32,000 bases of DNA, taken from NCBI RefSeq assembly GCF_000018785.1, contig NC_010163.1, forward strand, positions 1,110,001-1,142,000. The letters run 5' to 3'. The first letter of the stretch is position 1. Every line of letters begins with the position of its first letter. This document shows positions 2,938-25,629 of this stretch, piece after piece. The notes beneath the pieces were generated by a model that was not told the origin of the DNA, searched no databases, and worked only from the letters and a program-made list of their open reading frames with translations. Source of the stretch: Acholeplasma laidlawii PG-8A. Its GTDB lineage: Bacteria; Bacillota_I; Bacilli_A; Acholeplasmatales; Acholeplasmataceae. A program made the translations under genes and the position numbers.

Positions 2938-2968
2938 TTAGTTAAATCTCCTTTATTATTATTGTTAT

Positions 2969-4963
2969 TTAGTCGATAACTACTTTTGTTCCAATGTATG
3001 CACTAATTTGTTCATAGTTCATCTCATCTTTTTGAATATCAAAAATCGGTATTAGACTTGCATAATCACTTTCTATACGTGATTTTAATGCTGTTGTAAT
3101 ATTTAGTGTGAAGTTAGAAATATTACTATTTTGACTTGTAATGTCTACTGATAATTCATCATACTTTTCTACTTGAATAAATAACATAGGAACTACTTTA
3201 GAAACCTTTGTTAATACATCATTTTCCATGACATAAAAGTATTGAATTCTAAATTCTATATCATATCTTCTGGATGCAGTTTTCAGTGTAAATCCACCAA
3301 ATGATTTTGTCTTAAACGGAGTTGTACCATTGTTGACATAAACTTCTTTAATTTGAGTTTCGGTATCTGTTTCATACTTAATGTTTGTAATACCAGTTTG
3401 GCTATCTAAATTAAACCATAGTGTATTATATTGAATTGAAGATAAAGTCTCCTTGACTTCGTATCCTAAAAGTTTACCAGTAGATTTTTGGTATAACTCT
3501 ACAATCGTTCCACTAAAGCCTAAAATAGCCCCCGCTTTATTTCCTACAACGGATACATATGTATCATCCACTTTAAATTGAGCAGCACTCGATAATGATT
3601 TTCCAGCTACTGTCATGTGTTCATATATTGAACCTTCAATATGTCCATTTTCATCTTCTAAAACTTCAATATAAGAAGTTCTAAATCCTAAATATTTTGA
3701 TGCGATCGTAAAACCATCTTCAAAAACTTCATATTTTACACTATTAGCATCACCAATTTGGATACGGCCATCTTTATCAGAAGTAACCACATTATAGTTT
3801 AATGCTATTTGAACAGTTTGTTCACCAAATACAGGTATATTTGCTGTGTAGTCTACAACGTAACTCAGTACTTCACCTTCTAATGAAATATACACATTAT
3901 ATATGCCTAGTTTAAATTCATAGTTAGAAGTATCATCAGGGTTACTATCTAAATAGTTGTTAAATGCTACAACACTTGCTGAACTTATAGTGTCAATTAC
4001 TGACAATACAGTAAATAAGGTTTCTGCTTGTTCTAGGTTATCTAGTACCATTTGCCATTGTTCACCATATCCACCAAAAGTAATTTGATTAGTATTTACA
4101 AATGTAGCATAATTTGAATTTAATTGTGCTTGTGTCTTTAATACACCACCTGCTTGCATATGTGTAGGTAATATGTCTTGTGGCTTAAATTTATATGTAT
4201 TTAGGAGACTAGATAAGTATTGTCCGATTGCAACTTGTTCATTCCAAATAGCGTAAATTTTCAAATTCGAAGTCATTGTAATAGGCCACTGAACTTCTAC
4301 CTTAGTAGATAAATTCGTGGTCCAACCAGCAAATTTAAATCCTTCTTTTGTAGGATCTTGTGGTTTATTAATTGACATATCTTCATCTACTGTAATTGCA
4401 TTCACAGCTGAGCCGCCATCTACATCAAAAGTTAATGTATAAGTAGGTGTTATATATTGCCAATTTGCATAGAGTGTTAGATCAGATGTAACTTCAATGC
4501 TATTTACTGAATTTCCAGTAAATTCATCTTCTAAATACCATCCCTTGAATTCGTGATTTGCTTTGTTAGGTGTTGGAAAATCACTAAATAACGTACCTTC
4601 ATTAACTTTTCTAGTAACTGTACCTTCTGGGCTATTTGTTACAAATGTTATTGTGTATATATTAACCTTATTAGTCCATTTTGCGTAAATAGTCATATTT
4701 GAGTTCACTACAGTACTTGATGTAGCTTCTTCAGTCTTAGCATTATTTGTATACCATCCAGCAAAATCAAAATTCTCTTTAGTTGTAGTAGGTAGTGTAC
4801 CTAAAGTAGATCCCTCATTGACTGTTTTATTAGATACACTTGTTCCACCGTCAACATCAAATGTAACCGTATAAGTCTTTAATTCAGGAGCCGGTTCATC
4901 TCCACAGGCAACCAGCACAAAGGCAGCCATTAAAAATCCTAATATGATGAAAATTTTCTTCAT
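2969..4963 (-). CDS. Surface lipoprotein with three Listeria-Bacteroides (Flg_new/InlB-B-like) repeats and a large uncharacterised C-terminal domain
   Basis: Signal peptide with lipobox VLVAC|G. Three ~70-aa repeats of the pattern YT(V/I/L)TF..(DGG)...F.GW......(I/L)YA.W. About 420 further aa have no motif I recognise. Confidence 0.85.
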   Translation of the reverse strand: MKKIFIILGFLMAAFVLVACGDEPAPELKTYTVTFDVDGGTSVSNKTVNEGSTLGTLPTTTKENFDFAGWYTNNAKTEEATSSTVVNSNMTIYAKWTNKVNIYTITFVTNSPEGTVTRKVNEGTLFSDFPTPNKANHEFKGWYLEDEFTGNSVNSIEVTSDLTLYANWQYITPTYTLTFDVDGGSAVNAITVDEDMSINKPQDPTKEGFKFAGWTTNLSTKVEVQWPITMTSNLKIYAIWNEQVAIGQYLSSLLNTYKFKPQDILPTHMQAGGVLKTQAQLNSNYATFVNTNQITFGGYGEQWQMVLDNLEQAETLFTVLSVIDTISSASVVAFNNYLDSNPDDTSNYEFKLGIYNVYISLEGEVLSYVVDYTANIPVFGEQTVQIALNYNVVTSDKDGRIQIGDANSVKYEVFEDGFTIASKYLGFRTSYIEVLEDENGHIEGSIYEHMTVAGKSLSSAAQFKVDDTYVSVVGNKAGAILGFSGTIVELYQKSTGKLLGYEVKETLSSIQYNTLWFNLDSQTGITNIKYETDTETQIKEVYVNNGTTPFKTKSFGGFTLKTASRRYDIEFRIQYFYVMENDVLTKVSKVVPMLFIQVEKYDELSVDITSQNSNISNFTLNITTALKSRIESDYASLIPIFDIQKDEMNYEQISAYIGTKVVID
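4244..4873 (-). repeat. Three tandem ~210-nt coding repeats (aa 31-96, 97-168, 169-240 of the lipoprotein)
   Basis: The repeated protein pattern YTxTF...GW...IYAxW appears three times in direct succession. Confidence 0.8.
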
Positions 4964-5054
4964 TTTTTCCTTATCCTTCTTTCTTTTATTTGTTATTTGT
5001 AATAATAAACAATGACTATTAGGTTACTTTTTTAACTTGCCAAACTGAATATAA

Positions 5055-5082
5055 CAAAAAAAGATTCAACAGTGCGTTGAAT
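5055..5082 (-). terminator. Intrinsic terminator/attenuator in the spacer upstream of the lipoprotein gene
   Basis: Minus strand reads attcaac-gcact-gttgaat followed by c+TTTTTTT. The stem is only 7 bp but the U-tract is strong. Confidence 0.5.
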
Positions 5083-5277
5083 AACTATATTATTAGTTGA
5101 TTCTATTTTTCTAAGTATATCCATAATTATCCCCGTTATTAAGCATTTACTTTATTTAATTGTTTATCTTGATTTAATTATAACATGATAATATCATTTT
5201 TTAGTTGACCAAAAGTATAATCTTTAAATCTATATTTAGTTTTCATTTGCTTATTCCCCTAAACAGTTGTTATTACT

Positions 5278-5306
5278 ATTAGATCATTTATATCAAATTG
5301 TGTCAA
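5278..5306 (-). promoter_or_regulatory. Sigma-70-type promoter TTGACA-N17-TCTAAT with TG extension; GATC overlaps the -10
   Basis: The minus strand reads TTGACA (5306-5301), a 17-nt spacer ending in aTGa, then TCTAAT (5283-5278). GATC lies at 5282-5285. Downstream come an AGGGGA SD and a 22-codon mini-ORF. Confidence 0.5.
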
Positions 5307-5322
5307 CAAAGTGATCTGATAT

Positions 5323-5346
5323 AAAAAAAGACCTTAATAAAAGATC
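5323..5346 (-). terminator. Weak intrinsic terminator after the wH-T5orf172 gene
   Basis: Minus strand reads gatctt-ttatt-aaggtc (6 bp including one G-U pair) followed by TTTTTTT. Confidence 0.4.
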
Positions 5347-5360
5347 ATTTATTAATTAAA

Positions 5361-5954
5361 TTAGGAATGTAGATTATAACTTAACATGTCCTCAATTATG
5401 TTAAATATTTCGATACCTTTTTCAACCGGTAGTTTGAAAAACTCTCTTTTTTTGGCTTCAGTTTCTTTTCTTAAACTTGGATTCACTGTATCTATAAATG
5501 AATGAATACCTTTTTCAATTACAAGAGATTCTTTCATTGATTTGGTCTCTATAATCTTTTCCACTTTAAAAGGAAAAGGTACAGATGAATTATATAAAGA
5601 TTTCATTCTATTTTTAATTGAGTTTGTTCTACCTATCTTTACCCAACCAGGAATTGATTCATTTGAAACTAAATACACATAATCTTTTTTGCCTTTTTCC
5701 AATTCAGAGAAGTAAACTGCATCAAGTTTCATTTGATAAACCCCTGGTTCAATTCTATGAATAATTTCAAAGCGATTTAGATTTTGTAACGTTTGTCTGA
5801 TCTTTGCCTCTATATGAAAATTATTTGGATATACAGATTTAAACTCATCAAAAAAAGCATTTATATCCTTTAGTGAGAATATATTATGTTTAAACTTACT
5901 TTTTATGACCGTATAAACAAGATAGTTCCAACCATTTAATCTTTCAACTTCCAT
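5361..5954 (-). CDS. Fusion protein: N-terminal DpnI-C-terminal-like winged helix plus C-terminal T5orf172 (MUG113, GIY-YIG-superfamily) domain
   Basis: The N-terminus (GWNYLVYTVI...FSLKDINAFFDEFKSVYPNNFHIEAKIRQTLQNLNRFEIIHRIEPGVYQM) aligns with my memory of the DpnI wH domain (GW..., F.L.D., NNHIKEKIRQQLQILRD...G.Y). The C-terminus (YVYLVSN...WVKIGRTNSIKNRMKSL...EKGIH...REFFKL) matches the T5orf172 pattern. It has its own promoter, an AAGGGGAG SD and a terminator. Confidence 0.75.
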   Translation of the reverse strand: MEVERLNGWNYLVYTVIKSKFKHNIFSLKDINAFFDEFKSVYPNNFHIEAKIRQTLQNLNRFEIIHRIEPGVYQMKLDAVYFSELEKGKKDYVYLVSNESIPGWVKIGRTNSIKNRMKSLYNSSVPFPFKVEKIIETKSMKESLVIEKGIHSFIDTVNPSLRKETEAKKREFFKLPVEKGIEIFNIIEDMLSYNLHS

Positions 5955-5986
5955 ATAATCTCCCCTTAAAACTATACTTTAATATA

Positions 5987-6015
5987 ATTAGATCATGTTT
6001 TTACTTTTATGTCAA
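5987..6015 (-). promoter_or_regulatory. Promoter of the wH-T5orf172 gene: TTGACA-N17-TCTAAT, TG-extended, with GATC overlapping the -10
   Basis: The minus strand reads TTGACA (6015-6010), a 17-nt spacer ending in aTGa, then TCTAAT (5992-5987). GATC lies at 5991-5994. The architecture is the same as at 5278-5306. Confidence 0.55.
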
Positions 6016-6034
6016 ATTAATTATGTTTTTATAG

Positions 6035-6062
6035 AAAAAACCAATACAAATCACTGTATTGG
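6035..6062 (-). terminator. Intrinsic terminator closing the DpnII operon after the 82-aa gene
   Basis: Stem ccaataca (6041-6048) / tgtattgg (6055-6062), followed on the minus strand by TTTTTT. Confidence 0.65.
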
Positions 6063-6077
6063 CTTATGTTAATCGTA

Positions 6078-6326
6078 TTATAGACTTTGAATTTTTTGAC
6101 TTACCAAACTATCTAATAGTTCAACATCATCATTTTGAGTATATATTTCATATATTTCTTGAATTATTTCTAATAAAGTAGGTTTTACTGCTTCAGTAAT
6201 TTGACCAATATTATTCTCATAATACATCATTACCTTATATGCAATAAATACATGTGTAACATATAAATCTTCATTTTCTAATTGAGATTCTAGTTTTTTT
6301 GTAAAATCTAATAAATCAAATGCCAT
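6078..6326 (-). CDS. Small strongly acidic hypothetical protein, fourth gene of the DpnII operon
   Basis: 82 aa with 15 Asp/Glu versus 5 Lys/Arg, predicted helical. GGAG SD. It starts 37 nt after the dpnB stop, and the terminator comes only after it. A TATAAT also lies in the 37-nt gap. Confidence 0.65.
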   Translation of the reverse strand: MAFDLLDFTKKLESQLENEDLYVTHVFIAYKVMMYYENNIGQITEAVKPTLLEIIQEIYEIYTQNDDVELLDSLVSQKIQSL

Positions 6327-6363
6327 ATCATCATCTCCAGTAAGATGATTATACTATAAATTA

Positions 6364-7215
6364 CTATGTATTAAATAGTTTATGGAGCACTTTATGTTCT
6401 AGATCATATAAGGTATATAAATGTTCTATATCGTTATAAGCTTCCTCTAAATTCTTTTTAGTGGATAACCAGCCTTTTCCATCAGTAATCCAAACAAACG
6501 ATACATTGTCTATCTCTTTGATATCTTTGGCTAGTTTAGCATAACTTCTTGAAGTCTCGTTTAATTTAGAACCACTTGTTCCATAGTAGTTAGTTTCTAT
6601 AAGATATATATGACCCATTTTATCTTTTATCACAAAATCAAAACGCTTGTTTGATTTTGTGTCTTTTAAAGTATTAGATATATCTACACCAAATTCCTTA
6701 TATATTTTACTTGTATTAGCTTCTTCAAGTATGTCTATGCTTGGAATATCTTTCAAGTTCTTTAAAACAATCTGCGACATCATTTTGCCACTTCTATTTT
6801 TTCTACTATTAGTATCTAGTCCAACTTCAACACCAGTGACATAATCTACTAGGTTTTTGATACGTTTATCGTAAAACAAGTCTATAAGTCCTGTTTTTCT
6901 AATAAACTCTATATAATTGACATTCGGATCATAATAGTTGAAATTATAGGATTTCATTACTTCATCTAACACTTGAATGTTGTTTTCCCTAACTGCGAGT
7001 AATACAGGTATAACAGTTATGATATTCGGGTGTTCTTCTAATAACACTTTAAAAGCCTCATCAAAATTATCTTTTCCGATAAGGTAGTTTAATGTATTAA
7101 GTTTTAATTCTATGTGCTCTACTATACTAAAGACTTTTTTAAAATCAACAAAATAATCATATGTTGATAAACCCTCTTTTATAGATTCTATAATGTCATC
7201 AAATGATCTTTTCAT
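6364..7215 (-). CDS. dpnB: Type II restriction endonuclease, DpnII/MboI family (GATC)
   Basis: Matches remembered S. pneumoniae DpnII motifs: LVDYVTGVEVGLDTNSRKNRSG, KRFDFVIK, YGTSGSKLNETSRSY, WITDGKGW and DLEH. The ATGA start/stop overlaps dpnA. Confidence 0.9.
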   Translation of the reverse strand: MKRSFDDIIESIKEGLSTYDYFVDFKKVFSIVEHIELKLNTLNYLIGKDNFDEAFKVLLEEHPNIITVIPVLLAVRENNIQVLDEVMKSYNFNYYDPNVNYIEFIRKTGLIDLFYDKRIKNLVDYVTGVEVGLDTNSRKNRSGKMMSQIVLKNLKDIPSIDILEEANTSKIYKEFGVDISNTLKDTKSNKRFDFVIKDKMGHIYLIETNYYGTSGSKLNETSRSYAKLAKDIKEIDNVSFVWITDGKGWLSTKKNLEEAYNDIEHLYTLYDLEHKVLHKLFNT

Positions 7216-7982
7216 TTATCCACTTCCCCAATGCTTTCTAATCTTTTAATACTCAAATTTAAATAGTCTTTCTCAAAATCAATGCCAATATATTTTCTGT
7301 TTAGCATGATACTAGCTACCCCTGTTGTACCACTACCACTAAATGGATCTAGTACAACATCACCTTCTTTAGTGGATGCTAGTATGATTCTTTCTAGTAG
7401 CGCTAAAGGCTTTTGAGTTGGATGTTTACCTAATCGCTTTTCAGAGGGTTTTGTCAAACTGAAACGCCAAACATCCTTCATTTGTTTATTGTTGTTTAAT
7501 GATTTCATGAGGCTATAATCAAAATAGTTTTTACTACCTTTTTTTCTTGCCCAAAGCACCGTCTCTGTTGAATGAGTGAATGCTTTTCTAGCAAGGTGTG
7601 GTGGTGGGTTTGTTTTTTCCCAAGTGATATTATTAATGATTTGAAATCCCTCTAGTTCTAGACAAACACCGATAATATAAATATTATGAAGTGTTCCAGA
7701 TATCCATATGGTACCTGTATCTTTTAATATCCTTTTACATTTGTTTAACCAAGTAGTGTTATATTTAATCTTTTCTTCAATGGTCATTTCTGTTTTATCC
7801 CAGGTAGCTTTATTGACAGATACCATCTTGCCACCTTGGCAAGTAATACCATTATTAGATAGAAAATAAGGTGGATCTGCAAAAATCATATCCACAGATT
7901 TTTCATCTAACTCATCTAGAATTTCAAAACTGTCTCCTAAATAGAGTTTGGCATTTCTATTATCATAGTATGGTTTATTCAT
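7212..7982 (-). CDS. dpnA: N6-adenine DNA methyltransferase DpnA type (second MTase of DpnII, N4/N6 MTase family)
   Basis: Motifs IFADPPYFLSN, NITWEKTNP, KQMKDVW, GKHPTQKP, ERIILASTKEGD and DPFSGSGTTG are close to pneumococcal DpnA as I remember it. Confidence 0.9.
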   Translation of the reverse strand: MNKPYYDNRNAKLYLGDSFEILDELDEKSVDMIFADPPYFLSNNGITCQGGKMVSVNKATWDKTEMTIEEKIKYNTTWLNKCKRILKDTGTIWISGTLHNIYIIGVCLELEGFQIINNITWEKTNPPPHLARKAFTHSTETVLWARKKGSKNYFDYSLMKSLNNNKQMKDVWRFSLTKPSEKRLGKHPTQKPLALLERIILASTKEGDVVLDPFSGSGTTGVASIMLNRKYIGIDFEKDYLNLSIKRLESIGEVDK

Positions 7983-8802
7983 AGTTAATGATAATGACTT
8001 CTTCTACATTTCCACGACCATTTGGATTTGAATTTACAACACGCTTTGCAGGGACAACATGTATCTTGTAATCTTTATAAAGATTTCTAATAAAGTCTGT
8101 ATTATGATTACTTAACATCACTTTCACACCACGCTTATCCAATGCTTTAAATGTTTCAAATAATCGTATTTGATCTTCTTTATTAAAATCGCCTTGAGCA
8201 TAGGATGTAAAGGAATTTTTATCTTCCCAAGGATCATATGGTGGATCAAAGTACACAAAGTCATCTTTTTTAGCATCCTTAACTACTTCTTCAAAATCTA
8301 GATTGTTTATATAGACCTCATTAGATCTTAAGTAGTAATGAATGCTTGTTATGTTATCTAAATCATAAAGTTTTACCTTATCTCTTTTTCCTGAAGGTAC
8401 ATTATAAAATCCTTTTTTATTGACTCTATATAAACCATTAAATCCTGCTTTATTTAAGTAAATTACTCTTGCGGCTTTTTCAAATGGTTCAAGTGCACTA
8501 TACCCTTCTAATCTGTCCATCTCTCTAACTTCATAATAATATGTTTCATTATGATTCTTTTCATGATGATCTAACTTTAAAAGTAATTTCTTAAATTGTT
8601 CATTATCTTGTAGAGATATGTAAACAGATATTAAATCCTTGTTTACATCATTGATATAGGCTACATTAGGAGCAAACTCAAACAAGACTGCACCAGCACC
8701 AACAAATGGCTCATAATATGCATTAAAGTGATAAGGCATAAGTTCTTTGATATGACTTAACATTTGTCTTTTCCCACCAACCCATTTTAATACCGGTAAC
8801 AT
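7975..8802 (-). CDS. dpnM: Dam-family (D12 class) N6-adenine DNA methyltransferase, GATC
   Basis: Motifs LKWVGGKRQ, EPFVGAGAV and FVYFDPPY. The track starts at TTG 8823. I prefer ATG 8802, which is preceded by an AGAGG SD. Confidence 0.9.
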   Translation of the reverse strand: MLPVLKWVGGKRQMLSHIKELMPYHFNAYYEPFVGAGAVLFEFAPNVAYINDVNKDLISVYISLQDNEQFKKLLLKLDHHEKNHNETYYYEVREMDRLEGYSALEPFEKAARVIYLNKAGFNGLYRVNKKGFYNVPSGKRDKVKLYDLDNITSIHYYLRSNEVYINNLDFEEVVKDAKKDDFVYFDPPYDPWEDKNSFTSYAQGDFNKEDQIRLFETFKALDKRGVKVMLSNHNTDFIRNLYKDYKIHVVPAKRVVNSNPNGRGNVEEVIIINYE

Positions 8803-8831
8803 TCCAACCTCTTTCAATAACAAGAGGTGTA

Positions 8832-8857
8832 TTCCTTAAAGGTACACCTTTAGGGAA
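8832..8857. repeat. 26-bp dyad site L (12-bp half-sites around a central AC); candidate serine-recombinase crossover site
   Basis: Sequence ttccttaaaggt-AC-acctttagggaa. The two half-sites match 11/12. The site lies 29 nt upstream of the dpnM ATG. Confidence 0.6.
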
Positions 8858-8955
8858 TTGTCAGTTTTTCAATAAATATTTCACTAAAGCCACAAACCTT
8901 AATAACTTGATCAATTTTATTAAAAATGATAGGATTAATATATATCACAAAACGA

Positions 8956-8981
8956 GTTAACAAAGGTGTACCTTTTAGGAA
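8956..8981. repeat. 26-bp site R, inverted copy of site L with central GT; candidate recombinase site
   Basis: Sequence gttaacaaaggt-GT-accttttaggaa. Positions 8962-8981 are the reverse complement of 8832-8851 with 1 mismatch in 20. The inner half-site is degenerate. The site lies 72 nt upstream of the recombinase ATG. Confidence 0.6.
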
Positions 8982-9052
8982 AAAAGAGGTATTTTTTTAT
9001 GCCCATTTAATGCTAGAATGGTAACTATATTATTTTAATAGGAGCTAGCATC

Positions 9053-9631
9053 ATGACATACGCATATATAAGAGTTTCTAGTAAGACTCAACTTATTGAT
9101 AGACAACTATCAGAGATACACAAATTAAACATACCAAATAAAAATATCTTCGTAGATAAAGAAAGTGGTAAAGATTTTAATAGAAAGCAATATAAAAGAC
9201 TTAAAAGTAAACTCAAAAAAGATGACCTTGTTGTCATAAAAAGTATTGATAGATTAGGTAGGAACTATCAAATGATCATCGATGAATGGGCATATATCAC
9301 AAGGACTGTAGGTGCAGATATAAGAGTATTAGACATGCCATTATTAGACACTAGATCACACCCAGAAAACTTAGTAGGTAAGTTTATTAGTGATATTGTT
9401 CTACAAATACTTTCTTTTGTTGCAGAAAATGAGAGAGACAATATTAAACAAAGGCAAGCTGAAGGTATTAGAATAGCAAAAGAAAAGGGCATCCACATGG
9501 GACGCCCTAGATATGTTAAGCCAGATAATTTTGATGATATCGTTAGTTCATTTAAAAATAAACAAATAAGTCTTAATGAAGCCATTTCAACACTAGAATT
9601 ATCTAAATCAACGTTTTATAAGTATTTATAA
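9053..9631 (+). CDS. Small serine recombinase (resolvase/invertase family with C-terminal HTH)
   Basis: Motifs YIRVSS (catalytic Ser), DRLGRN, ENERDNIKQRQAEGIRIAKEKG and GRP, plus a C-terminal HTH (LSKSTFYKYL). AGGAG SD. An extended -10 TGcTAGAAT lies at 9011-9019. Confidence 0.9.
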   Translation: MTYAYIRVSSKTQLIDRQLSEIHKLNIPNKNIFVDKESGKDFNRKQYKRLKSKLKKDDLVVIKSIDRLGRNYQMIIDEWAYITRTVGADIRVLDMPLLDTRSHPENLVGKFISDIVLQILSFVAENERDNIKQRQAEGIRIAKEKGIHMGRPRYVKPDNFDDIVSSFKNKQISLNEAISTLELSKSTFYKYL

Positions 9632-10006
9632 TTTTTCAATAATAGGTAAATCAGCTGCTGCAAAATCATAGTCAGCCATTTCTTCCTTAGTTAAGAATTT
9701 TGTATCTAAGTGTTCATTGGGTTTAAATTCACCCGAAACATATTCAGCAAAATATGCATGTAATGTAATGATAAATGAGTTATACTCATGAACTACAGTA
9801 GTCAAAAAGTCAGTTACTTTAATTTCAACATTAAGTTCTTCTTTAATTTCTCTAGCTAATGCTTCTTGATGTGTTTCACCTGGTTCAACTTTACCACCAG
9901 GAAACTCCCATTTACGTGCAAGTTCGCCTTGGTCTTTTCTTTGTGCAGCAAAATACTTATTATCTTTTTTTATAACAGCTGCTACGACTTCAATTTGTTT
10001 TTTCAT
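9626..10006 (-). CDS. NUDIX hydrolase, MutT/NudG-like (deoxy)nucleoside-triphosphate pyrophosphohydrolase
   Basis: Nudix box GGKVEPGETHQEALAREIKEELNV, about 126 aa. The true start is ATG 10006, with an AAGGAG SD 7 nt upstream inside the REase 3' end. The track start at 10102 is an over-extension. Confidence 0.85.
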   Translation of the reverse strand: MKKQIEVVAAVIKKDNKYFAAQRKDQGELARKWEFPGGKVEPGETHQEALAREIKEELNVEIKVTDFLTTVVHEYNSFIITLHAYFAEYVSGEFKPNEHLDTKFLTKEEMADYDFAAADLPIIEKL

Positions 10007-12950
10007 TTTCTTTCTCCTTCGTGTAATCATATGTAAGTCTTTGATAAATATCATTTGGTACTCTATGTTCAAATTTAAGTTTAAACGAAATTGGTGCTTC
10101 ACCCACGTATTCTTCTACAAAAACTTTCCCTAAATAAGTAAAGTCTCTACTATAGCCTTTACCCTTAGTTGCTTCTGTTGCAGATTTTCTAACAAATAAG
10201 TGGAGGTTAAACCCTAATTCTTTATGGTTAACTAAATTCTTACCTGTTTCATTTGTGGTTCTTGTAGAACCAGGTGATTGCCAGTGGAATGTATTTTGAT
10301 CTATAAAATAGTCATCATAGTTAATACTATCATGTACATCGCCTTTTACCAAATTAACTGTTAAGTAATATTCTTTTTCAATTCTAATTAAGCCTGACAT
10401 TAATAGCCCTGACACATTTTTATCAAACAATGACAGTGTATAGATTTCAGTCTTAGAATACTCATGATAAAGATCTACAAATGGATAAGGTGCCACTTTT
10501 CTATCAAACTCATGATGATATCTAGCAAGACCATAACTAATTGTATTGTTGATAATATCTGTGTATCTAACGTTTTCAAAAATATTACTAAAATCATCGG
10601 ATACTCTGATTTGACTATTTGATTTTTCTATAACCTTTATATTATTCTTTTTATCCGTTACTGAACCAAATTCTAGGAGTAGGTTTTTTACCGAGTGATT
10701 AAAGCTATCCAGGTTAGGGTTATCAATGTATTTTTTCATTTTTGAAAATAATTCATTCATTTCTAGTGCTTTATAATGAGTTAGTTCCCTTAATATTGCA
10801 TATTCATAAGGGCGTTTAATTGGTAACATACTATCGAGATATCCAATTAATTTAATAAATGAATCGTGTAATGAGGAATCTTCTAAAATACCTTTTTCCT
10901 GTGATGCTACAAAACTAATATAGGATTTTTTCTTTTTTATGAACCTAATCGGATCAAACTCATCAAATGCAAAGTCTGTTAATCTAGGAACACGTCCTAG
11001 ATTTTTCTTTTTATCTAGATATGCTTCCTTTAGATAAGTGATCTCGTTAAAGTCAGTAGCCTCTAATTGTGCTAATATTCTTTCCTTTGATACTTTATTC
11101 AAACTAATAAAAGTATCTCCCGGTATATCAAAGAAATCATTTGCTGTAGATACAATCAAATCATCCTTATCATAGGCTTTATCACCAATAAGTGCAATCG
11201 GAAGTAAAAAGTTCTTGTTATGGTTTGCAATAAAGTCTAATACTGTTAAATATTCTTTATCTTTATATTTTCTTAAACCTCTACCAAGTTGTTGCGTGAA
11301 AATAATAGATGAATTCGTCGGTCTTAGCATTAGTATCAAATTCACTGATGGTATATCAATACCTTCATTAAATATCTCTACTGTAAATATATAGGATAAG
11401 GGATCATTTGGATCTTCTAATCTTCTAATAGTATCTTCTCTGTCAAGTTCAGCCGTTCCACCAGTTAAGGCAATAGATACTAATCCTCTTTCATTAAAAG
11501 CATTAGCCATATATTCAGCATGGGCAATATTCACACAATAACCAAGTGCTTTGGTCTTATCTCCAGAATGTTTGTACTTTTTAATATTCTCAATAATTAA
11601 CTCTACACGAGCCTTGATATTTAGTTTTTCAGCTAGTTTATCTATTTCAGTATTTAAATTAATATTTTGAATATCCGTTGTTGCATCTTCTATACCAAAA
11701 TAGTGAAATGGTACTACAAGTTCTTTTTCTAAAGCTTGTCTTAATCTAATTTCAACTGCAATCTGATTATCATATAATTCATAAATATTTCTAGAATCGG
11801 TTCTTTCGGGTGTCGCTGTCATACCTAATAAAAACTTAGGTGTAAAGTAACTTGTGATTCTCTGATAACTATCTGCAGCACTACGATGTGCCTCATCTAT
11901 AATAATATAGTCAAAATAGCTAGGATCAAATAGGTTTAAGTTATCAATTTTAGAAATAGTTTGAACAGATGCAAAAAGATAATCACTTTCTAAATCTTTT
12001 TTAGAACCTACAAATTCACCCATTGATACTTCAGGCATAATTGTTTTGAATGTTCTAAGTGCATCCCTTAATATTTTTCCTCTATGTACAACAAATAATA
12101 CCTTTTTAGGTCTTAACTGGAAAACATCAAATGCAGATAGGTATGTTTTACCAGTTCCAGTGGCAGCAATAATAAGTGCTTTATTACCCCCACTATTTCT
12201 AATGTTATTTAGGCCCTCTAAGGCCATTTCTTGCATTTCATTAGGTTTTATTTCATTAACATCTACTTGTTCAATAAAATCTTTAAGTTCGTTATTTTCA
12301 TCGATATTAAATCCTTGCATCGCATCCACAATCTCGTGATCAGGATTTCTCTTGATAAATTCAAAAAAGAAGTCAAGCATTGCCTTTTTGCCTTCATCAA
12401 CCATTCTTTTACTCTCATAGAGTGTTTTATATTCTTTTATGACTTTAGGTGTTAATTGTAGGGATTTAGGGTCATTAAATAATTCATCAAAGTTATCGAT
12501 GATATTTTCTTTAGTTTTGTCATCATTTTTGGCAACATACTTCAAATTCCACTCGTGGTTATTTTTAAGTGCATACTGAGTCATATTACTTGAACCAACT
12601 ACAATTTCAAAATGATTTCCCATATCGAATATATATGCTTTTGTATGAAACTTTCTAATACTTGTTAAAGCATCATATAGTTTTGCCTCTATATAGTTTT
12701 GGTCACCTATCATTTCAAGTGCTCTAGGTGTAGTACCAAACTCATAATTAGTTGTTATAAGTTTTCCTTTGACACCTCTTTTACCTGCATCTATAAGATC
12801 ATCTATGATGAGTTGCAAGCCAGAGTCACTAATAAAAGCCACGCTAAAAGAAAAACTTTGACATCTTTTCAAAGCATCTTTTAAATAATGATAAAAGCTT
12901 GATTTTAAATTGTTCGTAAGAAGTTCTACGGGTTGTTGATTTATTTTCAC
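9990..12950 (-). CDS. SauUSI-like Type IV modification-dependent restriction enzyme: N-terminal PLD nuclease, SF2/ResIII helicase, C-terminal DUF3427 (SRA-like) domain
   Basis: PLD HxK motif FHTKAYIFD...GSSNMT. Helicase motifs AATGTGKT (I), IIIDEAHR (II), GMTATPER (III) and QQLGRGLRK (VI). The C-terminal FHWQSPGSTRTT...HLFVRK...YLGKV is typical of DUF3427. GTG start with a GAGGT SD. Confidence 0.8.
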   Translation of the reverse strand: MKINQQPVELLTNNLKSSFYHYLKDALKRCQSFSFSVAFISDSGLQLIIDDLIDAGKRGVKGKLITTNYEFGTTPRALEMIGDQNYIEAKLYDALTSIRKFHTKAYIFDMGNHFEIVVGSSNMTQYALKNNHEWNLKYVAKNDDKTKENIIDNFDELFNDPKSLQLTPKVIKEYKTLYESKRMVDEGKKAMLDFFFEFIKRNPDHEIVDAMQGFNIDENNELKDFIEQVDVNEIKPNEMQEMALEGLNNIRNSGGNKALIIAATGTGKTYLSAFDVFQLRPKKVLFVVHRGKILRDALRTFKTIMPEVSMGEFVGSKKDLESDYLFASVQTISKIDNLNLFDPSYFDYIIIDEAHRSAADSYQRITSYFTPKFLLGMTATPERTDSRNIYELYDNQIAVEIRLRQALEKELVVPFHYFGIEDATTDIQNINLNTEIDKLAEKLNIKARVELIIENIKKYKHSGDKTKALGYCVNIAHAEYMANAFNERGLVSIALTGGTAELDREDTIRRLEDPNDPLSYIFTVEIFNEGIDIPSVNLILMLRPTNSSIIFTQQLGRGLRKYKDKEYLTVLDFIANHNKNFLLPIALIGDKAYDKDDLIVSTANDFFDIPGDTFISLNKVSKERILAQLEATDFNEITYLKEAYLDKKKNLGRVPRLTDFAFDEFDPIRFIKKKKSYISFVASQEKGILEDSSLHDSFIKLIGYLDSMLPIKRPYEYAILRELTHYKALEMNELFSKMKKYIDNPNLDSFNHSVKNLLLEFGSVTDKKNNIKVIEKSNSQIRVSDDFSNIFENVRYTDIINNTISYGLARYHHEFDRKVAPYPFVDLYHEYSKTEIYTLSLFDKNVSGLLMSGLIRIEKEYYLTVNLVKGDVHDSINYDDYFIDQNTFHWQSPGSTRTTNETGKNLVNHKELGFNLHLFVRKSATEATKGKGYSRDFTYLGKVFVEEYVGEAPISFKLKFEHRVPNDIYQRLTYDYTKEKENEKTN

Positions 12951-25477: not shown

Positions 25478-25511
25478 GGATTGTTTATTTTAATTCATTT
25501 TAAGAAGGAGT

Positions 25512-25585
25512 ATGTACGTAGTCTTAGTTTATCGGAACTAAGGTAGAAACTTAACTACCGAATATTAGTTAATTATACGGTACAT
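25512..25585 (-). promoter_or_regulatory. Purine riboswitch aptamer, guanine-type (RF00167-like)
   Basis: The minus-strand RNA is AUGUACCGUAUAAUUAACUAAUAUUCGGUAGUUAAGUUUCUACCUUAGUUCCGAUAAACUAAGACUACGUACAU. It folds as:
- P1 of 9 bp with one bulged C.
- J1/2 UAA.
- P2 UUAACUA/UAGUUAA.
- J2/3 GUUUCUAC, identical to B. subtilis xpt.
- P3 CUUAGUU/AACUAAG.
- L2 ending in GG opposite L3 starting with CC.
- J3/1 A-C-U, with C at the specificity position. Confidence 0.8.
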
Positions 25586-25600
25586 AAGATACATGTTGAA

Positions 25601-25629
25601 ATTATAACCTATTCACATAAAATTGTAAA
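25601..25629 (-). promoter_or_regulatory. Promoter TTTACA-N17-TATAAT driving the riboswitch leader
   Basis: The minus strand reads TTTACA (25629-25624), a 17-nt spacer, then TATAAT (25606-25601). The aptamer P1 begins 16 nt downstream. Confidence 0.6.

Follow-up and report, generated by a model that had tools for sequence, protein, structure and literature searches.

In the Hin/hix, Gin, Cin and Pin systems, the gene for a small serine recombinase lies beside invertible DNA bounded by inverted 12-2-12 sites; a site of the hix/gix type is 26 bp long and has two 12-bp halves around an asymmetric 2-bp centre. In the Hin system, a promoter within the segment is turned towards or away from an operon. 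The Mpi serine recombinase of Bacteroides fragilis flips promoter segments of under 250 bp that are flanked by inverted repeats (IRs), turning the genes they control “on” or “off,” and restriction-modification (R-M) systems that undergo phase variation (type I hsdS shufflons and type III mod repeats) provide a reversible, stochastic switch of restriction and methylome within a clone. Here we describe a locus of Acholeplasma laidlawii PG-8A that resembles each of these in part. It lies in a stretch of 32,000 nucleotides (contig NC_010163.1, positions 1,110,001 to 1,142,000; “the window,” whose own numbering we use for coordinates), in which a 110-bp segment between 26-bp sites of the 12-2-12 type is an active invertible promoter, situated between a DpnII-type R-M operon (dpnM-dpnA-dpnB) and a small serine recombinase gene. 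It is likely that inversion of this promoter, which we call P_inv, turns the operon on and off.

The differences from the described systems are as clear as the likenesses. Unlike in the Hin and Gin types, the recombinase gene lies outside the segment, and the segment measures about 110-124 bp rather than about 1-4 kb. Mpi acts on many distant targets, whereas the single target here is local; the phylum and the controlled genes are also different, and the recombinase does not belong to the Mpi family (NCBIfam NF009949, 55.8 bits against a cut-off of 272). The type I and type III switches shuffle hsdS specificity or slip mod repeats, whereas here the transcription of a whole type II operon would be switched by promoter inversion. 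In a 2025 review on phase variation, the systems named are of type I and type III, and a term search of it found no type II case. An earlier note on this stretch, made from the letters of the sequence by themselves, knew of no described promoter inversion for a DpnII-type system; we likewise found none in the literature searched (Acholeplasma combined with inversion, GATC or methylome).

The locus is made up of the following parts:

8832-8857, no strand: IRL (site L), the recombination site adjoining dpnM, a 12-2-12 dyad reading TTCCTTAAAGGT-AC-ACCTTTAGGGAA
8838-8851: left 14-bp core, AAAGGT-AC-ACCTTT, a perfect reverse complement of 8962-8975 (AAAGGT-GT-ACCTTT)
8852-8961: invertible segment, the 110 bp between the cores, holding a run of T past the inner arm, P_inv and a -10-like element on the opposite strand
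8907-8935, plus strand: P_inv, with -35 TTGATC (8907-8912), a 17-nt spacer and extended -10 TGaTAGGAT (8927-8935), facing the recombinase gene in orientation A, which is that of the window
8956-8981, no strand: IRR (site R), the recombination site on the recombinase-gene side, reading GTTAACAAAGGT-GT-ACCTTTTAGGAA, its outer half (8970-8981) fixed
9053-9631, plus strand: small serine recombinase of 192 aa, a presumed invertase, starting 72 nt past site R and 250 bp from dpnM
7975-8802, minus strand: dpnM, GATC N6-adenine methyltransferase, first gene of the operon (Pfam MethyltransfD12, 2.4e-62; Streptococcus pneumoniae DpnM, 2dpm, 1e-71)
7212-7982, minus strand: dpnA, second methyltransferase of the DpnII-type operon (Pfam N6_N4_Mtase, 4.6e-62)
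6364-7215, minus strand: dpnB, DpnII-family restriction endonuclease (Pfam DpnII, 1.7e-101)

The open reading frames (ORFs) of dpnM, dpnA and dpnB overlap on one strand and form a DpnII-type type II system, for which we infer GATC specificity from the homology of the encoded proteins. The earlier note had read the sites as 26-bp, 12-2-12 elements with 20-nt arms carrying one mismatch and with flipped AC/GT centres, and this is what is present: a repeat finder gives arms at 8832-8851 and 8962-8981 (20 nt, 95% complementary, 110 nt between them) together with an internal dyad within site L (13 nt, 92%), and the distance from core to core is 124 bp, start to start. The two sites are inverted, with non-palindromic centres (AC at IRL, GT at IRR). 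The description of site R as an inverted copy of site L holds for the outer half and the core and fails for the inner half: the repeat covers only the outer half-site and the core, and the inner half of R (GTTAAC) is unlike the inner half of L (AGGGAA). In IRL, the outer half (8832-8843) is fixed and the inner half (8846-8857) travels with the segment. The crossover takes place somewhere within the 14-bp core, with the central AC (8844-8845) as the presumed 2-bp overlap. The core motif, AAAGGTRYACCTTT, is present in three copies in the window when up to one mismatch is allowed (0.07 expected), a count that none of 100 shuffles reached. A plus-strand scan flags the IRL hairpin followed by TGTCAGTTTT as a terminator (fold -14.6 kcal/mol; the T-run is present in three of four species). 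We rejected termination as the explanation of the IRL dyad because orientation A has nothing upstream that needs terminating; hairpin and T-run are possibly an insulator carried along with the promoter.

The evidence for inversion comes from a comparison of all available contigs with a gene for an identical or nearly identical recombinase, DpnM or small acidic protein of 82 aa (whose gene follows dpnB). Nine of the 12 A. laidlawii assemblies are in orientation A (the window, L001-L003, L005, L011, L050, L067 and L071), and three are in orientation B (L004, from strain PG8RMel; L006, from PG8R; and L052), with the 110 bp exactly reverse-complemented and the flanks unchanged. The left B junction reads TTCCTTAAAGGT-AC-ACCTTTGTTAAC and the right one TTCCCTAAAGGT-GT-ACCTTTTAGGAA, exactly as predicted for exchange inside the cores; differences between the A and B alleles begin only outside the core, which places the crossover in the identical 14 bp and no finer. 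The inversion that the earlier note had put forward as a candidate is thus found in a quarter of the assemblies with the predicted junctions, and it arose within one laboratory pedigree:

LVCP01: PG8B, laboratory parent, orientation A
LZGE01: PG8S, derivative of PG8B, orientation A
LZGF01: PG8R, ciprofloxacin-selected derivative, orientation B
NELN02: PG8RMel, melittin-selected derivative, orientation B

PG8B is the stated parent of PG8R and PG8RMel (PMC5668537, PMC5764945). Members of the pedigree differ at 2-6 positions across the 5.2 kb of flanks, and the flanks are at least 99.9% identical between A and B strains. Among the other lineages, one that is 8.4% diverged is in orientation B and one that is 1.4% diverged is in orientation A. 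Taken together, the pedigree and the diverged lineages indicate that inversion has happened repeatedly, including in the laboratory; comparing this spacer among related strains, a check that the earlier note had suggested, brought out both orientations.

The two forms are also present together in a single run, SRR7081816. Its Logan assembly has a 19.9-kb contig on the dpnM side (L068) that stops at 8851, the last base of the IRL core, and a 60.5-kb contig on the recombinase side whose first base is that of the IRR core; such breaks at both cores are how a bubble in the assembly graph shows itself. The break at IRR is also seen in SRR6333588 (in a contig common to four samples) and, for another Acholeplasma, in an assembly made with SPAdes, and contigs L007, L053 and L012 begin at 8962 or one base from it. 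A 289-aa dpnM call in a Logan contig of A. palmae was set aside as uninformative about orientation, because it goes back to a GTG inside the core that occurs in both orientations.

The more conservative alternative raised by the earlier note was that the dyads are res- or six-like binding sites serving resolution or autoregulation, in which case the orientation differences would be assembly artefacts. The recombinase is indeed nearest to Sin and then to the gamma-delta and Tn3 resolvases, each site is palindromic, and strains that lack the island keep one dyad before the recombinase gene in the manner of an operator. Assembly artefacts, however, would have to produce the exact reverse complement with unchanged flanks across differing technologies and assemblers (454/Newbler, a second derivative of the same parent and a Logan assembly), to place the junctions within the cores and to break the graph exactly at both cores in one run, and a homologous system elsewhere is likewise found in both orientations. 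The Logan assembler uses a k-mer of 31; the IRs of 14-20 bp are shorter than this and should not confuse assembly. We give this alternative next to no credence, and as the sole explanation an accessory site is refuted, since both sites serve as inversion crossovers. The earlier reservation that 124 bp is short for inversion also falls away: inverted alleles exist, and homologous recombinases have invertons of 95-130 bp, one of them in both orientations. A plasmid res region was considered and rejected as well, since a distant-mode search with 8700-9700 gave only weak matches, to recombinase genes, and the locus is chromosomal (the recombinase protein is identical to A. laidlawii proteins and is encoded on the 1.50-Mb chromosome LS483439.1).

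The strains lacking the island are 8195 and JADNRS01, in which the whole 6 kb is absent (surface protein, nuclease, 82-aa gene, dpnBAM, IRL and the segment). Their homology resumes exactly inside the IRR core (window 2946-8962 against L039 5784-5910, and L051), and they retain IRR as a single dyad before the recombinase gene. Excision or integration of the island by the recombinase was rejected as a simple explanation, as the left boundary is without a partner site.

A further alternative accepts the inversions as real and attributes them to host homologous recombination, or to replication template-switching at short IRs, with the recombinase uninvolved. In PG8RMel, along with the inversion, the outer arm of IRL has changed from T to A at window position 8837 (L004 5785), which makes this arm identical to the outer arm of IRR; over 5.8 kb the strain has just one other difference from the window, and the diverged lineages carry A. 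The change looks like conversion, which is unexpected from a serine recombinase and is not explained by its simple exchange. On the other hand, the perfect repeat is only 14 bp long, the 12-2-12 geometry with its asymmetric centre has been kept in five lineages although the spacer has diverged, homologous recombinases repeatedly adjoin similar IR-flanked promoters, and switching recurred in one laboratory lineage. We consider a purely host-driven origin of the inversions very improbable, and return to a recombinase-flipped segment.

The recombinase matches Pfam Resolvase (PF00239, 5.6e-25) over residues 3-146, and its YIRVSSKTQ aligns with the catalytic-serine motifs of Sin (YARVSSLDQ) and gamma-delta resolvase (YARVSTSQQ). 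The alignment to gamma-delta resolvase extends over residues 3-191, through the C-terminal domain, and several homologues have PF02796. The closest solved structure is that of Sin/Bin3 (2r0q, 2.1e-26), followed by the gamma-delta and Tn3 resolvases; Gin is distant (1e-9, as against 2e-26 for Sin). The protein is therefore Sin-like by sequence, and it behaves like a Hin-type invertase in the geometry of its sites and in its product. Sin and beta act on res or six (a crossover site plus an accessory site) and mainly resolve dimers, whereas here there are two isolated dyads 124 bp apart, both of them crossover sites, and the product is promoter inversion. Beta recombinase can both resolve and invert, aided by an HU-like protein. 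Systems of the Hin/Gin type have a Fis-bound recombinational enhancer; here the kinship to Hin and Gin is not close, no enhancer is evident at the inverton, and Mollicutes are not known to have Fis.

Other Mollicutes and metagenome genomes of gut Firmicutes encode homologues at 56-66% identity, and immediately upstream of these genes there are likewise IR pairs with 95-130 nt between them. In metagenome genomes of Clostridia, a homologue at about 60% identity has an inverton of about 100 nt with the canonical promoter TTGACA-N17-TGCTATAAT, and the segment carrying it is in opposite orientation in L025 (1522-1646) as compared with L027 (721-853) and L049 (926-1060). The neighbours of the homologues vary (a Dam-class methylase with GmrSD, an SNF2 helicase, an HD protein, surface proteins). 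These recombinases seem to form a family of promoter invertases whose invertons are very short.

For the promoters, the published transcription start map of PG-8A could be used, together with the following elements:

8942-8944, plus strand: P_inv transcription start, 6-8 nt past TAGGAT and about 110 nt before the recombinase ATG
8940-8948, minus strand: opposite-strand -10-like element TGaTATATA, read from the sequence, facing dpnM in orientation A
9011-9019, plus strand: P_rec, a fixed extended -10-like element (TGCTAGAAT) before the recombinase gene, likewise read from the sequence

Fisunov et al. (PMC5138195) mapped the starts by 5'-end-enriched RNA-seq. Their Supplementary Table 1 assigns a plus-strand +1 at 1118943 to ACL_1085 and lists minus-strand starts near the locus for ACL_1079, ACL_1080 and ACL_1081; for ACL_1082-1084, the dpnM operon, the map lists no start in this strain, which is in orientation A. 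We placed these starts on L001 (LS483439.1, PG8-type, orientation A) by fitting the three minus-strand starts, which are 808 and 363 nt apart, to -10 boxes, each start being required to lie 6-7 nt past its box. A single register suits all three, each on an A, with two of them 6 nt past a perfect TATAAT and the third 8 nt past TCTAAT. In that register the plus-strand start falls just past the -10 of P_inv, where the earlier note had read a TTGATC-N17-TGaTAGGAT promoter. P_inv is a functional promoter that reads into the recombinase gene in orientation A. Its start is weak (coverage 0.6-1.9), and a simple consensus promoter scan does not call it in either orientation (score 8 of 12); its -35/17/-10 architecture is kept in A. 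equifetale, A. palmae, Haploplasma axanthum and metagenome contig L064.

The minus-strand promoter claimed earlier stands as a sequence element, with the equivalent in L064 a perfect TGTATAAT, and falls short as a mapped one: the PG-8A map has no minus-strand start at 8940-8948, which is possibly a weak second promoter. P_rec agrees with the earlier description of a recombinase gene beginning 72 nt past site R with its own extended -10; its counterpart at the same place is TGTTAAAAT in A. palmae and H. axanthum, and the PG-8A map lists no start for it. Nor is there a fixed promoter between site L and the Shine-Dalgarno (SD) sequence of dpnM, as had been noted: the gap from the dpnM start (8802) to the site is 29 nt and is occupied by the SD, so that a fixed dpnM promoter has no room.

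The SD of dpnM (AAGAGGT; window 8802-8860, minus strand) is able to pair with ACCUCUU 8 nt upstream. The RNA predicted for orientation A has the IRL hairpin and an SD-sequestering hairpin (-20.6 kcal/mol, z score -3.4), and in the predicted orientation B leader the IRR-derived arm UAACAAAGGUGU pairs with the anti-SD instead (z score -1.3). This SD-sequestering feature is not kept in A. palmae.

It is at this point that the meaning of the inverton can be disputed. It might be real and yet mainly tune the recombinase, with dpnMAB expressed in both states from read-through or a weak promoter, so that at most expression levels would change and the methylome would stay constant. The only mapped P_inv start does read into the recombinase gene, there is a -10-like element on the opposite strand (a perfect one in L064), and the genes upstream run co-directionally with dpnM. 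Furthermore, most assemblies and all reference genomes of other species are in orientation A, so that an ON/OFF switch would mean a mostly silent R-M system. This has to be set against an orientation A in which dpnM has no listed start and its SD is predicted to be sequestered, and against a linkage of inverton and dpnM that is kept in five lineages. In addition, the same island has a predicted methyl-GATC-dependent nuclease with an active promoter, which argues against constitutive GATC methylation. On balance we regard mere tuning of the recombinase as unlikely and favour control of the DpnII operon.

The nuclease, which the earlier note had not included, changes the biological meaning of the switch. 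It and its neighbours lie downstream of dpnB:

6078-6326, minus strand: acidic four-helix protein of 82 aa, following dpnB (15 D/E against 5 K/R)
5361-5954, minus strand: winged-helix and GIY-YIG nuclease of 197 aa (Pfam DpnI_C, 4.2e-13, and T5orf172, 3.1e-16)
5987-6015, minus strand: nuclease promoter, TTGACA-N17-TGATCTAAT, with a GATC (5991-5994) inside the extended -10 and a weak start at about 5978 (ACL_1080)

The nuclease is 50% identical over 186 residues to Apa233I (WP_026653965.1). Ahi29725I and Apa233I, both from Acholeplasma species, cut Dam-methylated DNA and spare unmethylated DNA (PMC11037411), and they have the same winged-helix and GIY-YIG architecture as the protein of the window; in the passages searched they are treated as stand-alone enzymes. 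The protein of the window is predicted from its sequence to be a Gm6ATC-dependent type IV restriction enzyme. One island thus pairs a GATC methylase with a nuclease predicted to attack methylated GATC, an apparent genetic conflict; PMC11037411 discusses how genomic conflict is avoided, and in the passages searched the neighbouring DpnII-type operon and the inverton are not mentioned.

The 82-aa gene has a strong promoter of its own, with a -10 TATAAT ending at 6348 and a start at about 6341 (ACL_1081; coverage 7-11). The protein is kept after dpnB in five lineages at 36-48% identity, and a search among 1.8 billion representatives yielded only nine relatives. It has no Pfam or NCBIfam family, and its AlphaFold2 model (predicted local distance difference test, pLDDT, 82) has no fold match in the PDB below an E-value of 2.8.

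The pairing is not peculiar to A. laidlawii. Five lineages share the recombinase, the IRs with P_inv, dpnM, dpnA, dpnB, the small acidic protein and a winged-helix nuclease, which takes the following forms:

A. laidlawii (window): winged helix and GIY-YIG
A. palmae J233: Apa233I itself
Haploplasma axanthum: AIPR and a PLD-winged-helix protein
Metagenome contig L064: AIPR and a PLD-winged-helix protein
A. equifetale: winged helix and GIY-YIG, with the nuclease and dpnM genes both appearing frameshifted

Outside the window, nuclease coordinates are 3323-3931 in L054, 1354-2139 in L056 and 4919-5698 in L064.

The IS10 transposase promoter has a GATC in its -10 region and is silenced by Dam methylation. 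The element TGATCTAAT is invariant before the nuclease gene or operon in all five module lineages, in spite of a varying spacer sequence, and its GATC arises from a non-consensus C. The GATC in the nuclease promoter is found at five of five module loci as against neither of the two nuclease homologues unlinked to DpnII (L059 and L061), in which the promoter element is absent and the 140 nt upstream hold no GATC. P_inv carries a GATC in every lineage as well: in the -35 in A. laidlawii and at the 3' end of the -10 (TAGGATC or TACGATC) in the other four. Of all 4-bp palindromes, GATC is the most strongly under-represented in the window: trinucleotides predict 123 copies and 80 are observed, a ratio of 0.65. 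The nuclease promoter is accordingly a candidate for methylation sensitivity, judged by analogy and conservation, and the GATC in P_inv may provide methylation feedback on the switch promoter or on the level of R-M.

We therefore propose the following mechanism. Inversion of the segment would come about through recombinase dimers bound at IRL and IRR, by strand exchange at the AC/GT centres. In orientation B, P_inv faces dpnM with a leader of about 70 nt and would so switch GATC restriction-modification “on.” A cell in orientation A would be unmethylated, with the nuclease promoter on, and would be armed with the methyl-GATC-dependent nuclease; a cell in orientation B would be GATC-methylated and armed with DpnII, and methylation of the nuclease promoter would silence the nuclease. 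Within a clonal population, the two complementary restriction states would then be present side by side, as in the DpnI and DpnII strains of pneumococcus. In its full form, as a two-state toggle in which the inverton sets DpnII methylation and the GATC in the nuclease -10 reads it, limiting production of the nuclease to unmethylated cells, the proposal is tentative, and we would put it at somewhat less than an even chance. The 82-aa protein may buffer the dangerous transitions.

The likeness to S. pneumoniae is close in its parts: the DpnI and DpnII cassettes are opposite GATC systems, with homologous DpnM, DpnA and DpnII and a winged helix of the DpnI type. Each pneumococcal strain carries one or the other cassette at the same locus, whereas here the two share a single island, within one genome and along with an inverton, and the alternation would take place within a clone.

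Several points weigh against this interpretation. The ON state of dpnM in orientation B is deduced from geometry, and the assignment of the flipping to this recombinase from adjacency and the type of site. The missing dpnM start in PG-8A is negative evidence from a map with 607 sites for about 1,380 genes, and our placement of the starts is our own calibration, which assumes that LS483439.1 equals CP000896 locally and carries an uncertainty of 1-2 nt. In orientation A, dpnM could be fed by the element at 8940-8948 or by read-through from the co-directional NUDIX and PLD-helicase genes upstream. The A. laidlawii nuclease is only 50% identical to a tested enzyme, and the methylation sensitivity of its promoter and of P_inv is a proposal by analogy. 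Switching a type II system off is normally harmful (post-segregational cutting), and switching R-M on beside a methyl-dependent nuclease should be harmful too; in PG8RMel, which is in orientation B, dpnMAB and the nuclease gene are both intact, so some safeguard must exist. In PG8R (L006, 454 data), dpnM has two single-T homopolymer deletions (window 8385 and 8413, 28 nt apart) and the PLD-helicase gene is split; these are probably 454 errors, and if real the dpnM deletions would inactivate that gene in an ON-orientation strain. The proteome and single-nucleotide polymorphism (SNP) supplements of the PG8 derivative strains have no DpnII genes among their entries. With these points taken into account, we still consider it highly probable that an inverton flipped by the recombinase and carrying P_inv controls the DpnII operon, with the nuclease toggle as a proposed extension.

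The surroundings of the locus include other genes of the defence type. Directly past the recombinase gene (9626-12950, minus strand) lie a NUDIX (MutT-like) gene and a gene for a 986-aa protein with PLD, DEAD/ResIII helicase and DUF3427 domains, and with this pair the region looks like a defence island; in H. axanthum, the same pair is also present, farther off. Elsewhere in the window, a purine riboswitch aptamer is found at 25499-25601 (minus strand; Rfam RF00167, 47.7 bits against a gathering score of 37).

Phase variation of type I and type III systems is well known; for a classical type II operon, the literature that we searched has no description of a switch in which promoter inversion acts on the entire operon. 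The coupling to the nuclease offers an answer to a puzzle raised by the nuclease authors, namely that of a genome holding a methylase as well as a nuclease against its product; Apa233I itself is located in such a module. If the proposal is true, complementary restriction states would exist within one clone, so that neither methylated nor unmethylated phage could sweep the population, and the locus would be a natural case in which a switch based on DNA inversion and an epigenetic promoter are interlocked. The minimal sites of the recombinase clade (26 bp) and its segments of about 110 bp may also lend it to use as a compact genetic switch. For A. laidlawii, which is both a common contaminant of cell cultures and a model mollicute, the switch predicts that clones will differ from one another in transformability and phage sensitivity.

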